This document shows, in pieces, positions 13,050-22,555 of a stretch of DNA of 64,000 bases. The position numbers were made by a program, and so were the translations under genes. The notes under the pieces were generated by a model. That model saw only the letters and a list, made by a program, of their open reading frames with translations, was not told the origin of the DNA and did no database searches. The DNA comes from Paraglomus brasilianum. Taxonomy: Eukaryota. The number at the start of each line of letters is the position of its first letter. The first letter of the stretch is position 1. The stretch spans positions 1 through 64,000 of the forward strand of contig CAJVPI010000026.1 of the NCBI GenBank assembly GCA_910592345.1, written 5' to 3'.

Positions 13050-16000
13050 TGCTGAATCAGGCTTGTGCTGACAAAGAACCCCTCAATTTGCATACCCCAA
13101 ACATATTTACAACCATACCTTTCTAGTAGTTGGACACAGGAAATTGCTTATATAGCATATAGACAGATGTATAAGCTTCAACTCGATATGGAAACAATGT
13201 TTCGCCTCTTATTATTATTTGTTGAGGCGTTTTGTTTACGGTGTGAGAACAATATTTAGAATTATGATTATATGCATTATGCATTATGCTCATCGTTTCC
13301 GTCATGATGGTAAATAACAATAACCGATGACTTATACAAGTGAATATGATCAAATTCACCCATCATTTTTCACACAACTGTTCGGCGTCCGCAATTCTCT
13401 GACTTGTCAAGCAGAGCCTTGTTGCTATATCAAATTTTTGCGGCGATAGTTGTTTAGTCAGGAGTTGGAGAACCCCGTTTAGTTCACTTATTGACTTTTC
13501 TCCATTTGTTAGTGATTCTAAAACCAGGATTGCGTTCCGTAATCTCCTGCATGTTTTTTCTCATTCATTGTATACCACATATCATATATTTACTCCGCGA
13601 TTTCATGCATCGTATCGCTAGTCAGATCTAGGGCTTAAAACTTAAACTCTGGCGCATATTCGGTAACTGAAACGGTTTTTTTATACTTGTTTAATATCCA
13701 AACCTTATGGACATCAACAGAACGAAATAAGCTGATCGTTTTGCGCCATTTTCTGCGTATTGATGCATGAACACGCGAATACAATGAGGTATACGTTGTC
13801 GTTACTTAAACAAGGACATACTGACATGTCTTTGTTTACAAGTGTATTACATAGCGCCCGCCGTAATACATGCTTTTATACATCCCCTGAGTGGAATACC
13901 CACCCTAAGAAAGGTCTACGGTATCCTCACAATTACAGCGCTTTTGAACTTTTGCATTACATTAGTATCAGGCGCATTGAAACTAATGTGTCCCATAATT
14001 ATCTCTCATTCTATGTTGCACGGGTATGTTAATAATTAATAGCCATTGTCAATTATGAATGTGAATAATAAATCTTGTTGAGCTCAATATTTGTACAACA
14101 TCGTTGGCAACTAATATTAGTAGTTACAGTAAGTATCCGAACAGCCTTAATTCTAATAGTGCATTACAAACCATGATTACCTGTAAAATTTCAGCTTGAC
14201 GACTGTCTTCAGCAAATTTTCCGATCATCCAATATTTACTGTATAAAACATATCAAAGCTGTACGTCGCTTATTTCGACATATACTTCAAAAATCCATAT
14301 CTCCACATGTTTCTAATCGATTTGCGTGATTAATTTTGTCTGTCGGATCAGAAAATCGTTATTATAACAATAAACGCGCATGATTATCGTTATGTCGCAC
14401 GATTATTGCATTTTGTAGTAGCGAGCACACAGTATCTTTAAAAAAGTGTCGGGATATCAAAAACAAGCCAATGTATCTTTTTCCGATACAACAGTGCTTA
14501 GATTTGCACCCCCTTCTTTTTGGGGGTTCTTGGTGGTCATTGCTGAGGTTTCAATCTGACCAAACTGATGAAAGATTGGAATACTGTAGATAATGGAAAG
14601 ATTAGTTAAGTTATTCAAAGTCACCGACAAAGAAGCATGTGGATTATGTTCTTGCGATTCAAATATTGTTACGATCTGATGAATCAGACAAGCAAGTCAC
14701 ATGGTAAAATCTTCGCGACGGTATTAGCTAATTTAGAATTTATTGGTTCTTTAAAGAATTTCTTCGTTTCGCATTTTGGGCAACGCTAAAGTATATATAA
14801 GCAGCCCTTCATGTTATCGATGTTGTTAGTATTACTTTATAATAGTACTACACGGAAATAAACGATTCCCTTTGCAATCGAAATTTTACTTTCTTTCATC
14901 GTTGAAATATTAATTATTTGACCGGACACAATAATTATTTATTGAAGCGAATATCGTTTAATTAGTTTATTAAGAGACAAAGTGACAAGACCCCGACTAG
15001 ATAGCCCTGTTTAAATAGGAGGGCGCATTTTAATTATTAAATTAAGTCACTTGTAAATTCTATTGAACAACTACCGTAATAAGGGCGGTAGCACGAAGCT
15101 AAATCTGGTAACATCCCCCGATCGGAAGAACACCCTACTACTACGCGAAAGATTAATCGCTCCGTGGATATTCGTTGGGACAAAGAAAAGAAAACGAAAT
15201 TGAGCAAAATACCCGAGACAAGAAGTACAGCCCAACAACTCCTAATGAAAAGATGCAAATTATCAATCCAACACTGACACGTCTATTACCTTCTCAATAA
15301 CCCAACTATGAAGCAATTAGTAGAATTCTACGACGACAGTTTGCATGCTTTCCCTTTAAGAAAGGAAAGTGCAGACTACAAAAGTGAAGGGGAACGTTTG
15401 TTTTGTCTATGTCGTTTAATTGTTGTTAGATATATTGTGTATGTGCGGCTCCCAGAGACGGAGGGGAGCGATATAAATTTCTCCGAACTAGCCACTAGTA
15501 TATTGCGGAGCCACTGAGAAACTATAGCACTTTTAAAAACTGGATCTTCTCAGGTCTTTAGGCAGCGAGACACAGGCCCTCTTTTCCAGCAGTGCAAATC
15601 GTACACAATCGCTACTAATGACAATGTGATGATATATCCAAAATTTTCTAGGTCATATCAGTTGCTGGGAGACTCTGTTGAGGTAACAAGACACTATCGT
15701 ACCAGCTATGAACCTAGTAGTTAAACCTAACCTTTTGCTAGTGCTCTTGAGAACACCTTCTTTAAGTGATGGAGAAATCTGCCTGTAAACAGAGCCTGAG
15801 AACTCTGTGGAAAGGGTAGCGAGCGTTCCACCGTGGGGTGTACCTCATTTGTGCGACACTATCAAATTGCCGGAAGGTCCTAAAGCTCCAAAGTACCGCG
15901 GAAAGCGTGAAAACGGTTTTGCAGCAGTAGAGCGTAATGGCTTTATGGATGGTAAAAACCTTTGGAGATTTAAGCACTATAGGCTGCTTGCAGTCTATTT

Positions 16001-17760
16001 TGTTATGCCCTGTATTGGCGACGATGTCATCAGTTCTAACATTTTCTTAGGGAAAATTTAGAGAAGCTAATCAGTTTATTTTTAGGATGGCTAGCTTGGA
16101 TACTCGTTCGAGTCCATGGCCCGTGTGGTGTCCCCACATGTCTGGACCTTAAGCAAGTCCTAGGTACGAGAATAAAGTGAGAAATGCTGATGATATACAG
16201 GGTCCCTTAAAAGAGGGAATGGATAATCGGCAGCCAAGTGGCCTGGGTGAGACTCTTAGAGTGCCCGACCATGCAGTTCACAGACTAAACGGTAGTGGGG
16301 TTCCGTCCCAATGCGACGTTCTGTTTGTTTTCGAGCAGGAGTAATAAGTAACACCGTCACTAGCGTAGACGAGGACTTTTGCTGGAAATCATTAATGAAG
16401 ATTGGGTGTAAGATCTGGAAAAATGGCCAGACACCAGCCAACTTCTACAGCTTGTTAACGTACAAAGGGGTATGAAAAACCGGAATCATAAGATATAGTC
16501 GACAGACGCCCGAAAGGGTAGTTAGTTAGTTCACTAACAAGAATCCGCCTATAGTTATCCACCACTATTTTGGATGTCAGGCCGATGATGATTGTGTGGT
16601 AACTGAGTACCGCGAAAGCATTGGAACAAAGACAAAGTTGGTAGATAACGTCTGAAACCGCAATGTGTGGGAAGCGTGTCTCTTTCTAATGTCCGTGAGG
16701 GGTCAAAAGGTACTGAGAAAAGTGAGGTGAAGTGTCTCGCGCTCCGCAGGCGCGTCATGGATCCGATCTGCTCGACGTATCGTAATGCCTTGTTGCGGGT
16801 TGCATTATGTATTGTAGACGCCGTTCCGACGGCCTCACACGGGATTGGCGATTGTGTTAAACTACTAATGGACGCGGAGGACCAATGTGATTAGGGGGAA
16901 AAGGGTCTGCTCATGATTTAACCCTGGTGTTCGATTTACTGGTAAATCACGTACGGGCCACGTCGGGCCTTTAATGCGGAGCCGCGCTCCAAATGCGTGA
17001 CAAAGTCTTCTTTGGTGAAAAGTCTACGTGAGGATTCTCAGTAGCCTTGGAAGATGGGAGCTATAGTTACCGTGGATGGAGACCTAACCGCTTCTGCTAT
17101 GTTTAAGGACTAACGTATATTATTTCACTTGGGCGAGTTCGGCGGTAGGTAAACCGCGAACCAGAACTTCTAGCATTAAGGGGTATGTGTTGTGATTCCT
17201 ACGATAGGTGTAAAACCGTTGCGATGTCTTATTGGGATTAAAGAACTGTTCTGCGGGCCTCCGATATAAATGGGGATCCATGTGTGTCCTAGGTAAGAGG
17301 GCAGCCTACCAATAAGCATCATTATGCACATCGGAATGAACTGACAATGGGAGATTACGACGCGTACTCATATAGGCGTAGGAGTAAAGCTAAACTGGTA
17401 GCCGAACATATCGAAAAAGGGATAAAACCTACTAAAGCGGGGTGAAATATGTATATTAGGTCAAATCTTGATGCTTGCTAAGGAATGGGCGCGAAATGGT
17501 AAGGGATGCCTGCGCAACTTGGTTGTTAAGCCAAGAAAGGGATAGGCTGGTAGGACCCCGATTTCCGGACCAGTGTCAAGATTTTGTTAGTCTTAAATAT
17601 CAGGTAAGAGTTAGGATGGAGTGTTAATCGTATGTCGAGGGTAGTCTACTCAGGACGCCGTAACGGGCTCACCACCCACTAACCCTCAGCACTCCTGCAA
17701 TTGGCGAAATCTGCGATCCACCAGAATACTCTGACGAAAAATTTTCGCCGAGTGGTAACC
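13050..17760 (+). pseudogene. Highly diverged, insertion-expanded relic of nuclear LSU (25S/28S) rRNA, roughly domains II-V, interrupted by a group I intron
   Basis: Colinear matches to remembered eukaryotic LSU motifs: tctagtagttgg 13122; tatctttttc..aacag..cacccc..gggg 14474-14526; gaatactgtagataatggaaag 14579; attggttct 14742; aaggggaa 15387; tgacaatgtgat 15619; aatgccttgt 16784; tgggagct 17055; ttctagcattaagg 17168; tgtccta 17285; aaaagggataaaa 17415; tcgtatgtcg 17628; cacccactaa 17673. Ends uncertain. Confidence 0.7.
15710..16541 (+). ncRNA. Group I intron ribozyme, subgroup IC1 (3' end uncertain, may extend further)
   Basis: P3 cactatc 15857 / ggtagtg 16291; P4 tgccgg 15868 / tcggca 16227; P5 gtcc/ggat; P5a ctccaaag 15886 / ctttggag 15960 with tacc/ggta and A-rich bulge; Q aatcggcagccaag; R gcagttcacagacta 16273; P8 ggttccg 16299 / cggaatc 16481; S aagatatagtcg 16490; P9 gccc-GAAA-gggt 16508; candidate P1 agctat 15704 / gtagtt 15717 with U.G. 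Confidence 0.93.
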
Positions 17761-20700
17761 GAGGTTCGATCGTCAATCGCATTACCCAATCACTTGTATT
17801 TTACATCGAGTTATACAGTAAGTCGGTTTATCGCGATTTTATTGCAGGTCTTGCAGACAGTAGCACGTTGGGATTGTTAAAATACTGTATGATACGTTTC
17901 GCACCAATTAACACCTTACATGAGCCCAAGAACAGATTTATGTGATACTTGCCAACGGTTTTGGAATAGCTTACAGTACAATGCTCGCAACGAAGAAGAA
18001 GCAAAAAATCTACTGACAAAATCTGGTTAGCATGAGGCCAAGTTAGAAAGAAATTATTACAGCCGACTGCCAATAATTCGACTCTATAATGCGACTTTTC
18101 AGTAATTCGATCGCCTTGAGCGAGGCCCGATTTTTTTATATGATATTTTTCTTCCTTTTATTCGATCGAACTTATTTGTTATTCGACCGCTTATTAAACC
18201 AGTGCATATAAATAATACTATAGTTGCATTCGTTAATTTAATTTCTGCCGATTATTCGAACGGCATTGATTTATAAAAAATTCGATAGTATGTTTCTTTT
18301 TGAAGTTGTACACTCATGCCAATTAGAACATCGTATGTCGACAACTTCAATATTAAAGTTCTTTGCAAACTTGAGGCCTTTTTCTTGAAGTATTTTATCT
18401 GAAAACATTTCCAACATGTGTAATATTCCGCACAGTACTTATTGTAATGAGGTATAGACGAGTGGTCAAAACCGTACTACGACAAAAGCATATCTGTCCA
18501 ATTAAATTATTAAACGAGACCTTAGGAAGATAGTGTTACTGTTCACAATAAGTACAGAAATACTTATACCTTCTAAATCTTGTAAAGGTATAACTGATTA
18601 TAATACATTAATTCAGAAACTGATATTCAATAATAAAAGAGCATCTATTTTAACCAATGGGAGTAATATAATAATAATGCTTTATTGTCAATACTCATCC
18701 AATCATATTGTATGTTCTACGTACAATAACAATACATTCATAATTCCACTATGGTCAGAAAAGGATAAAAGAGATCACCGTCTCCAATTAAGTTGACATG
18801 TCATCCACGTACATAATATTTACCTTATTACTTGCATAGTAAAAAGGCGTCAGGAGTATAGCAGAAATATTATCAAATTTATGTTAAAAAGTAGCAGTAT
18901 TTGTAAAAGAAAATAAGATAATATGACGCAGAGAGTTTCCCGAAGCTATTCGTTGGCATAGCGTTTTTCAAATGCTATCCCGTTATGGAGAAAAAATCGA
19001 GTCGTCGAAACGAGTTTAAGTACGGCTACCTCTCTTTTCCCATGACAATGTTGACACATTCTTGCCACCACCATTGGATAGCCTGTGAGTAGCAATTGTT
19101 ATAATGCTCGTAGATAAGGTGGAATAAAGTGCAGTTTACATGGAAAATTTAACTTGTGCAAAATTGGAGAACTATTGGTTATTGAATAAAATTTAAAATT
19201 AAACCGAAATCTAAAGATAAATTAAAGTCGCCATATTAATATAACATTGACATTAAAAATAATAAGCAAAGGTATTAGAAACGTCAAACATTCGAAAAGT
19301 ACATTTTTTTGCATTCCGTATTAAATAATATGTTATGGATATAATATTGGTTGTTATCTTCGGAATGATCTTCTTCTCTTGTTATCATTTATACCATTTG
19401 GTGCAATTCTAACTTGCCCTTATCGGTAATTGTTTATTATTGCTGGATGTCCGACTATGTACGCAGGGATTGAACTATTTCTCAAAGATTGAACATTCAT
19501 CCTCAAAAATCGAATTCGTCTTGTAAGAAAAGATTCCAACAAACAGTCGTATTGCAAAGCCCAATAGTGTAGTAATAATTTGAAGTTTGGATATACGTGG
19601 AAACAACGCTAAAATCATGACAGTCCATGCGTGCATATTTTCGATAAATGAATTTGTGGCTTTGTGCGACAATGCGTCACATAGTAATAAAATTCACTAT
19701 ATTGCTATATAACGGAAATGTACCGATTAAGATCGTTGCATAACGATACGGCCTAACTGTACTATATCGAAGATTTGCTATGACAAGGTTTGTTGTACAG
19801 CAAATGCCATAACCAGAATGTTCGGGCGACAGACAATTCTAATTGTTCGGCTGACAATATGTGCGACCAATGAGATTCCTTCCATAATCATTCCAATAAT
19901 GCATGTAACAGTGATGACTTCCTCCGCGTCATGGATAAGAATACTCTTTTACGTCATTTATAGCGAGAAAGTAATAAACTTCGTACCACGGCAGCATCAT
20001 GCGGCGCACATGAAGGGGTGAGGAGAAAATAAATGGTAGAGAGGAGGTGGAATGACGACTTAATTACGAAAATATAATGGAAATCAGTTAACTCAAAGCA
20101 GCAAATAAAGCAAGAACTTGAATTAGATTACCTTTTAACAAATAACTGAATTAGACAAGAGCAGCTACCTACATTCAGAGACTGTGGCACCTGTGGCAGA
20201 GTGGCGTTATGTCTTATGATCAACTTATGTGGGTTCCATTTATATACTAGCACGTTTATAGCTATAATAATAATAATAACCATAATGCAAAGTATCCAAG
20301 TGCGACTTTTGCCAGGTTAAGAATCAAGATTGGATCCATAATACAGGTTGCTTCTCTGATTGTTTGAAGAACGTGTGGGAATGTGTGTTCATCAATGATG
20401 AAAAGGGGTGTTGACTATAGTTGGCTGTGTTCAATCACTTGACACGGCTGAATTGGAAGGTGTGAAAGTTAAAGAGGACGTGAGAAGAACTGATGATGGG
20501 GGCCAGCAACAAGATCTTGATGGTTTTAATCGTCCACTTGGAGTACGCCACGCAGCCATGAGTGACCGTGACTGACGATAGCAGAAAGATCACAGCGCAG
20601 TTACACTGCGGAACGCGGAGATTGTGGAGATTTTGATCTGTTATGAGGAAATAATGATCTGATGATATCGTATGATTGGTGGCGATAGAACTCGGCTATA

Positions 20701-20910: not shown

Positions 20911-22555
20911 ATGTCTAATATTACAACCTCCTCCTCACTACTACTACTAAAACAGTGGGATACAATGGAACATCAAACAGCTGGTATGTTCTCATATGCT
21001 AGGCACTTTAATATTATCAACACAAAACACTTGTGCTCAATATCTTAATTTATGTCAACTACCAGATGAATGTCCCCGTAGACCCTCAGCTGACTCTTTT
21101 TCGACAGAACCGCACACATCCACGCATACAACCCCGATTTCCACCTCACCGACAACTCCAAGCGAGAGGGAGCAACAGATGACCACTGTGCAATCAATAG
21201 ACACAACTCCATCACAACCGACAGAAGCGTCTACTGCTGGACAAGAACAACGATCAATAACACAAACAACTCCAACTAATTCGTCACATGCAATGGATAT
21301 ACTTGTAAACACACAGACAACACCAGACCCCATACATATACAAATGCAAATACATACATCTAATATCATACATACTGCCTCTACTACTCCAGTTACTACT
21401 CCCACACAACCAACATCAAGTATAACCTTCCCTCAATCATTTGCATCGCCGCAAGAAACTTCAATAAGCGCACCCTCCACACCCTCTGCCAACAACTCTA
21501 CAAAAAAACCAGTAGTAACCAGGCAACCTCGCCTATTGGAATGCTACAACTGTGGAATAACAAATACCCCACTCTGGCGGAGGACACCCGACCGCATGCA
21601 TTCTTTGTGCAATGCTTGTGGTCTATACTATAAACAGTACAACACCCATCGTCCTCTCCACATAATACACAAGACAAAACCTGCTGCACGTTCCTATCCC
21701 TATATACTTCCCGCGTCGAAAGAGGCCGCGGCAGCAGCGGCAGCAGCAGCAGTTGCCGCTCAATTGAATACAGCACCGAGTCCGCAACCAACGCAGATTC
21801 AATCTTCTATACCAGTTGACCCGGTAACAATTGTAACCGAATCGGCAGTTCAATGTATTAATTGTGGACAAACACAGACGCCGCTCTGGCGGAAGAACGA
21901 GAAAGGCCAACCATTGTGCAATGCTTGTGGCTTATATGCCAAGATGCATAACAGAGATAGGCCGCTTGCAATGCGCAAGTCAAAAATCCAACGACGACGT
22001 AGAGATTGGGGTGCTGCATATCCATCAGACACTAACGGAAATTCATTAATTGAGGCATCAGGTTCCGACGAGTCTTTCTCGTCGAGTCCGCAGAGTCCTT
22101 CGCTATCACCGATGCAAGGCATAACATCTTCACCTAATCAACGACCGATAATGCCATTACCGCCTCCTACTACACATATTGCTCCTGCACTATTGACTTT
22201 GGCGACTGCAGCAACGTCTCAACAGCAACAGCAGCAGCAATTGCAGCTACAGCAATTGGAACAACTGCAGTTACAGAGAGCGCTGCAACAGCAGCAGCAG
22301 AATAATAATCAGCAGCAGTCCCCGATAAGTTCTCCTCCATCAAGTGATATTAATACAAATAACACACATGACCCGTATATGCCTCCACCGTTTGATTATT
22401 TTGACGAAGCAAAATTCAAGCAGCTGGTGGATAGATTATCGCGACGGCAAGTGGAGGAATTTTTGGCTGTGCTTGAGAGACGATGCGAGATTTTAAAGAA
22501 GGTTTTAGAGGATGAGGATGAGGATGAGGATGAACCAATGGTTAAAATGGAGTAA
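20911..22555 (+). CDS. GATA transcription factor with two C-x2-C-x17/18-C-x2-C zinc fingers
   Basis: [14 protein letters not shown]...LCNACGLY and [14 protein letters not shown]...LCNACGLY; poly-Q/poly-A tracts; likely ATG 20911 with intron ~20984-21065. Confidence 0.92.

Follow-up and report, generated by a model that had tools for sequence, protein, structure and literature searches.

The intron and its ends

We analysed the first 64,000 nucleotides (nt) of contig CAJVPI010000026.1 of Paraglomus brasilianum (assembly GCA_910592345.1), a stretch referred to here as the window, and found on its forward strand a 2362-nt group IC1 intron (Table 1), whose relatives are in several cases joined to hypovirus-like RNA. 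The Rfam model RF00028 matches positions 15817-16522 of the forward strand (57.7 bits against a gathering threshold of 50; E = 5e-12), and since this is the sole gathering-level match in the 64 kb, no ribosomal RNA (rRNA) gene lies nearby. Introns of nuclear ribosomal DNA (rDNA) interrupt an rRNA gene, and no rRNA match was found in the window. The first-pass annotation had proposed an intact IC1 core outside an rDNA array, and the Rfam score, the covariation described below and the lack of rRNA in 64 kb bear this out. Its inventory of core helices from P3 to P9, including the P5a bulge, the guanosine site in P7 and the GAAA loop, was likewise correct, all being present and paired: P3 joins 15857-63 to 16291-97, P4 joins 15868-73 to 16227-32 (UGCCGG/UCGGCA), P7 joins 16281-87 to 16496-501 with the guanosine site at G16283-C16500 and a bulged A16282, P9 with its GAAA loop occupies 16508-19, and P5, P5a (bulge 15955-59), P5b, P5c, P6 and P8 are all pairable at core coordinates. 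Neither a homing endonuclease nor any other long open reading frame (ORF) was found in the intron, the longest Met-started ORF having 67 amino acids (aa) under translation table 1 and 77 aa under table 4. By every feature that could be tested, this is a real group IC1 intron, and it is neither an rDNA intron nor a homing-endonuclease intron.

Upon examining the ends, we observed that the core does lie inside the interval 15710-16541 given at first, but that this interval covers only about one third of the intron, the true ends being 15342 and 17703. At the 5' splice site U15341 pairs with G15374, and AGUU pairs at four of four positions with the guide GACU, for which 0.8% of window sites offer a tetramer that fits as well. 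The hairpin starting at 15342 recurs with the same start in five relatives, whose guides are GUGU (L011), GAGU (L026 and L032), GACU (L050) and GAUU (L060). At the 3' end, UUG follows the terminal hairpin in all 11 relatives that reach it, three of these ends being mapped exactly on intron-less virus RNA. The AG after P7 could pair with the UU before the terminal G as a candidate P9.0 in 10 relatives, and in L014 the candidate is GG with UC, if the end of that contig is the true intron end. The terminal G and P10 had resisted placement by eye; the former is now G17703, and P10 amounts by eye to at most 3 base pairs (bp). A shorter intron ending near 16660 through pairing of 16503-08 with 16650-55 was rejected, as RNA crosses this point and family members end about 1 kb further on.

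Table 1. Features of the intron and its flanks in the window
Feature	Position	Strand	Basis
5' flank, A/C-rich, one frame open save one TGA	15092..15341	+	no homologue found
5' exon end AGUU; U15341 is the predicted 5' splice-site U	15338..15341	+	4/4 pairs with guide 15374-77
Whole intron, 2362 nt	15342..17703	+	P1 and terminal motif common to relatives; RNA cover 15359-17677
P1 extension hairpin and internal guide sequence GACU (15374-15377)	15342..15377	+	fold; hairpin start shared
P2-region hairpin, conserved	15648..15717	+	fold; arms recognisable in most of 14 sequences; covariation by eye only
P2.1 region, begins GCUAGU	15737..15856	+	motif kept in relatives; label by general IC1 anatomy, numbering uncertain
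Predicted catalytic core P3-P8, P5abc, 349-nt P5 segment, guanosine site in P7	15857..16501	+	Rfam, pairing, covariation
Module inserted in P8	16341..16445	+	78-92% matches in L011, L016, L039, L056
P9 (GAAA loop) and P9.1, loop motif as family marker	16508..16538	+	pairing; motif in 24 loci without rRNA context, 0/32 with
Long-range helix 16543-47/17073-77 closing a 525-nt subdomain	16543..17077	+	covariation, 13 sequences
Conserved structured 3'-domain block, motifs 16971-78, 17025-33, 17088-97	16925..17125	+	covariation
Terminal motif, hairpin 17618-25/17688-95, terminal G17703	17603..17703	+	fold; UUG ends of relatives
3' flank, relic of an unnamed ORF family with several members, decayed and frame-shifted	17763..18066	+	phmmer, tblastn

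Relatives and conserved structure

A single metagenome scan with a pattern running from the P4 variant to P7 returned 60 loci, of which 32 lie in rRNA context (called by blastn against 11 loci carrying rRNA primer motifs), 24 carry the P9.1 loop motif and 4 have neither. None of the 32 rRNA-context loci has the motif and none of the 24 motif-bearing loci has rRNA context; the latter are referred to here as the non-rDNA family, a count that includes the near-duplicates L026/L032, L043/L058, L042/L055 and L023/L048/L056, plus L057. In the 12 family loci scanned with Rfam no rRNA was found, the only match being the intron model, in 10 of them. An unrooted tree of the core, with 50 rows after 5 without anchors were skipped and 6 near-duplicates taken out (bootstrap not fully settled), splits 19 family rows from 31 other P4-variant introns with support 100/100, and places the window copy with L026, which is near-identical to the virus-joined L032, with support 99/97. 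The introns of relatives measure 2049-2911 nt, and the family patterns had no match in viral contigs or in prokaryotic genomes. His-Me endonucleases were seen only in the non-family loci L003 and L053, the latter a 1215-nt circle of an intron with a His-Me homing endonuclease. Fungal-looking DNA holds genomic copies of the family at 2800-5400 of L021 and 1870-3700 of L044, with repeats around; by eye their neighbours are ankyrin-repeat and retroelement-like, with A-runs nearby and intron ends that are not fixed, and their 3' region holds many scattered UGCUAAG-like words.

Next, we examined covariation in a core alignment of 19 sequences, comprising the window and 18 of the 24 family loci. In this alignment 90.6% of cells are paired and two-sided changes occur in 46 of 84 pairs; none of 500 shuffles matched this, a test inflated by the relatedness of the sequences, and slid controls pair at 31-42%. 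P7 is paired in all 19 sequences and P3 in 94%, with 4 of its 7 pairs covarying; two-sided changes also accompany pairing of 98.8% in P5b, 92.9% in P5c and 96.7% in P6a/b, and P5a, a poorly aligned stretch, is 70% paired. The invariance of P4, P6 and P7 is partly a selection effect, and the real covariation support sits in P3, P5b/c, P6a/b, P8 and P9. This bears on the P4 variant, which the annotation had read as a compensatory change arguing for maintained structure. Its strands do pair, but the argument is weak: the variant is invariant in the alignment because the search pattern was built on it, and it is common to many rDNA introns, occurring in all 32 rRNA-context loci of the 60, so it is not peculiar to the window copy. 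The module inserted in P8 of the window intron lies 228-683 nt before P3/P4, upstream of the core, in L011, L016, L039 and L056, and this different position in four relatives indicates that modules are shuffled between introns. A direct repeat (15690-98/15855-63), considered as a P3 switch, was rejected, as close relatives, L046 and L050 among them, lack its first copy.

Beyond P9.1, the family carries a 3' domain of 1.2-2.0 kb with conserved blocks, about 1.2 kb long in the window; this domain, like the true ends and the link to hypovirus RNA, had been missed at first. Within its multibranch element, two-sided changes affect 14 of the 16 predicted pairs across 12 sequences. The long-range helix, first spotted by eye and then counted, forms 65 of 65 pairs in 13 sequences with seven strand combinations (0 of 20000 partner shuffles) and closes 500-1000 nt across relatives. 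In the terminal region RNAalifold yielded three pairs only, because lengths vary among relatives. No Rfam family was matched in the 5' or 3' domain of the intron, and a mimicry of rRNA by these domains, considered because of a resemblance, was dropped for want of Rfam support. A telomerase RNA was also rejected, the element CUAACCCU at 17679-87 being one arm of a stem.

RNA evidence, viral joints and nuclear surroundings

Parts of the stretch occur in all 24 RNA runs listed, seven of which (X1-X7) were aligned to the window; the evidence consists of assembled contigs, which give neither strand nor read counts nor level, and DNA carry-over is possible. Contigs at least 99% identical span 15359 to 17677 in six of the seven runs (X1-X6), bridging the boundaries 15710 and 16541 of the first annotation, and X7 had nothing on 16580-18500. 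Different data sets start at 15359, 15364 and 15366 and stop at 17674 and 17677, so that the RNA has the size of the free intron; L057 is identical to the window over 1361 of 1361 nt, and other contigs differ at a few places, for instance at 16899 in three runs. Outside the intron we observe short matches in 14495-14663 and a low-depth contig at 17877-18042 with a 9-nt insertion. Contig coverage closely follows the intron, although uncovered contig stretches alone prove nothing. Twelve apparent joints in the RNA contigs were rejected as short matches of other introns rather than splicing. RNA junctions and circles, named by the annotation as a check, are partly seen: the window copy has no exon-exon joint, but the relative L050 forms a circle of 2312 nt, its terminal G being joined to the P1 strand at full length or within 2 nt. 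The short matches at 14495-14545 and 14626-14663 are to a far more abundant RNA, in four runs (depth about 200-1900 at the first), whose loose ends resemble group I R and S elements; the region, 700 nt upstream of the intron, may derive as a decayed copy from another intron-like or mitochondrial RNA, and a motif from this RNA had no match in the viral or prokaryotic collections.

When following the 11 relatives that reach the 3' end, we find that L052 ends with the terminal G, self-joints are formed by L050 and L026, and the other eight enter foreign sequence. In five of these eight (L032, L043, L055, L056 and L060) the foreign sequence is hypovirus-like polyprotein RNA, in sense orientation and at five different sites. 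L032 runs into 723 aa of hypovirus polyprotein, the named matches being Cryphonectria hypovirus 2 and, with E = 7e-84, Sclerotinia homoeocarpa hypovirus 1, although the virus itself was not found in the search; L043, L055 and L060 run on into hypovirus-like ORFs, and L056 into the virus contig L068, whose ORF carries RdRP and helicase domains. In addition, the 5' exon of L011 is hypovirus-like, L011 forms a proper P1 of its own, and both of its flanks lie in one open frame, of which the 5' flank alone is clearly viral. The foreign 3' sequence of L016 and L039 has no identification. By eye, the last 102 nt of the L039 flank look like a decayed Ty3/gypsy integrase, for which a 26-aa piece gave no Pfam match, and the L039 core lies near that of the virus-joined L011 in the tree.

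Three of the joints can be placed on an intron-less virus. The 3' flank of L060 is identical to virus L062 over 88 of 88 nt, and the AAUU upstream in L062 pairs with the L060 guide GAUU, as 59 of 2638 sites would. The upstream residues had been predicted from the guide beforehand; protein P0004 has Lys-Phe there and L062 confirms AAUU. The L062 virus polyprotein also occurs in a 4888-aa form (P0020) with a superfamily 1 and a DEAD-type helicase. Virus L068 is joined at two sites, by L056 after CAUU (111 of 111 nt) and by L043 after GAUU (95%); neither contig includes its guide, so that the L060 joint is the one testable against a guide. At all three sites the joint follows ATT, which has a frequency of 2.4%, and since the terminal G is kept in L060, L056 and L043, a template switch at the shared UU does not fit. 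At contig ends of L026, L027, L032 and L060, internal fragments are joined to the intron 5' end, and in L026 the terminal G is joined to an internal site; these may be partial circles or artefacts.

Finally, we examined the nuclear site. The 5' flank is in the top 3% of window tiles for A/C-richness. The ORF relic in the 3' flank matches five short proteins by phmmer (E = 7e-8 to 9e-4), with tblastn pieces 47-63% identical; the family has no Pfam name, the flank itself has no Atlas match, its relative P0016 has no match in PDB, and such ORFs are presumably transposon-like in these fungi. Without the intron, the frame stays open across the joint, an outcome with a chance of one in three or better and no known product. 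An 11-nt word is present four times at 18103-18262, downstream of the decayed ORF. The wider window (4380-60963) carries fungal nuclear genes, with LRR, F-box, T5orf172/MUG113, CP2, Ctf4 and Uso1 proteins and a GATA factor (20996-22555) that clusters at 90% with a Paraglomus occultum protein, in keeping with an arbuscular mycorrhizal host from that genus or close to it.

Proposed spread, rival readings and known systems

We favour, as moderately probable, the reading that the window holds an ORF-less nuclear IC1 intron of a non-rDNA family, members of which are joined by their terminal G to hypovirus-like RNA; reverse splicing is the family's likely means of spread, and the viral replicase probably copies it. 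We infer excision, reverse splicing, copying and retro-insertion in turn. The intron would exit its precursor by splicing or 3' hydrolysis and persist as linear or circular RNA; its 4-nt guide would bind a matching tetramer, and the terminal G would attack after the U, integrating the intron. The viral polymerase would copy the intron-bearing positive-strand RNA ((+)RNA) genome, amplifying the intron without DNA or a homing endonuclease, with splicing restoring the polyprotein frame, and occasional reverse transcription of intron-bearing RNA would lead to nuclear insertion, as in the window copy. The conserved 3' domain is a candidate determinant of the preference for viral RNA. The pairing of P1 with the genomic flank at four of four positions is expected upon entry by splicing chemistry, and because a (+)RNA genome loses the intron on splicing, the many sites and intron-less genomes favour re-insertion over a fixed viral intron. 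More tentatively, the family may be a protein-free RNA parasite of RNA viruses, with insertion at many hypovirus sites, replication by the viral polymerase, renewed excision by splicing, expressed nuclear reservoir copies and possibly a role as an antiviral ribozyme.

Several observations weigh against the proposed spread. Five of the six virus joints are 3' only, and collinearity of the L011 3' flank with the related virus L070 is not clear, which leaves a complete, collinear insertion in a virus unproven; none of the 11 virus contigs retrieved carries the intron, and no joint of the window intron itself to any virus was found. Agreement with the guide is uneven among the four self-joints at the intron 5' end, the P10 has 3 bp at best, and comparison of the intron flanks with 17 hypovirus-like proteins gave no resemblance (best E = 0.06). 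Across the contigs of the seven runs, the window copy has no exon-exon joint and almost no exon cover, so splicing and transcription at this locus are putative, and the RNA could derive from an identical copy elsewhere.

The rival readings differ mainly on the window copy. That the family works as proposed and the window copy is a silent endogenous relic, its RNA coming from virus-borne or other copies, is in our view unlikely, even though the flanks are uncovered, no spliced joint is seen, the neighbours are decayed and RNA contigs deviate at a few places such as 16899. The RNA is 99-100% identical in several studies, as in L057 over 1361 of 1361 nt, and P1 and the guanosine site are perfect beside an ORF relic that is only 47-63% identical to its kin; a silent relic would thus need very recent insertion or continued selection. 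We give still less credence to a nuclear copy kept as an antiviral ribozyme, whose excised RNA would cut viral genomes after U-ending targets and stay attached through the terminal G. Such cutting would account for the five of six virus joints that link terminal G to virus alone, at differing sites, and for viruses that assemble intron-less, and it accords with intact nuclear copies in the window and, in other fungi, on the genomic contigs L021 and L044, and with RNA in six of seven runs. The viral 5' exon joined to the intron in L011 fits integration instead, contigs starting inside the intron would also explain missing 5' exons, and the known genomic copies share no conserved locus and sit among repeats.

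Least probable is an rDNA intron out of place or a structural RNA that has been domesticated and does not splice. An ordinary IC1 core, a P4 variant common among rDNA introns and the long ORF-less P9 extensions known there (PMC8395846) speak for it. For the family, this reading is largely refuted: rRNA context is seen in none of its 24 loci, it forms a separate tree group, its guides vary among relatives, no Rfam family matches its 5' or 3' domain, and the terminal-G joints represent in vivo chemistry in relatives.

In PMC3679873 and PMC8395846, group I introns of the nucleus are stated to occur only in rRNA genes. With nuclear rDNA IC1 introns of the Tetrahymena Tth.L1925 type (RF00028) the family shares P3-P9, the A-rich bulge of P5abc, the guanosine site in P7, the U·G pair of P1, the terminal G and circles, whereas it differs in lying outside rDNA, in its length of 2.0-2.9 kb, in its many unrelated insertion sites, in a variable 4-nt guide and in a P10 that is weak or absent. 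The myxomycete S1389 IC1 intron (1274 nt, ORF-less, with a P9 of 715 nt) is also large without an ORF, but its extensions are direct-repeat arrays (PMC8395846), in contrast to the non-repetitive 3' domain of the family with its conserved motifs and covarying helices. Reverse splicing of the Tetrahymena and Didymium introns into rRNA has been described in vitro, in yeast and in E. coli, and evidence for the full path from reverse splicing to DNA was lacking, according to PMC3679873; RNA-level insertion guided by a short internal guide sequence is the shared feature and proposed route of spread, with rRNA as the target there and viral RNA at the natural joints here. Given natural joints, several targets, known guides and nuclear copies, the question of whether reverse splicing leads to the genome becomes directly testable. 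If copying by the viral polymerase holds, this would be a mobile element with an all-RNA cycle and no protein of its own, in viruses of plant-symbiotic fungi, and a natural ribozyme that inserts at least 2 kb into a chosen RNA would interest RNA engineering.

Publications on the non-rDNA family or on group I introns in hypoviruses were not found in the searched literature, which is poor in subscription papers; the intron database of PMC11835236, outside the search scope, could hold family members. Two further systems link group I introns to viruses of eukaryotes. Group I introns were reportedly found by Yamada et al. in 1994 in Chlorella viruses, which are DNA viruses; the presence in a eukaryotic virus is shared, whereas the DNA genome keeps its intron and splicing removes it from a (+)RNA genome, into which it would have to insert again. 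The 'Xenusoviruses' connect group I introns with RNA viruses in fungi, as mitochondrial introns that encode their own RdRp; the family described here differs in encoding nothing.

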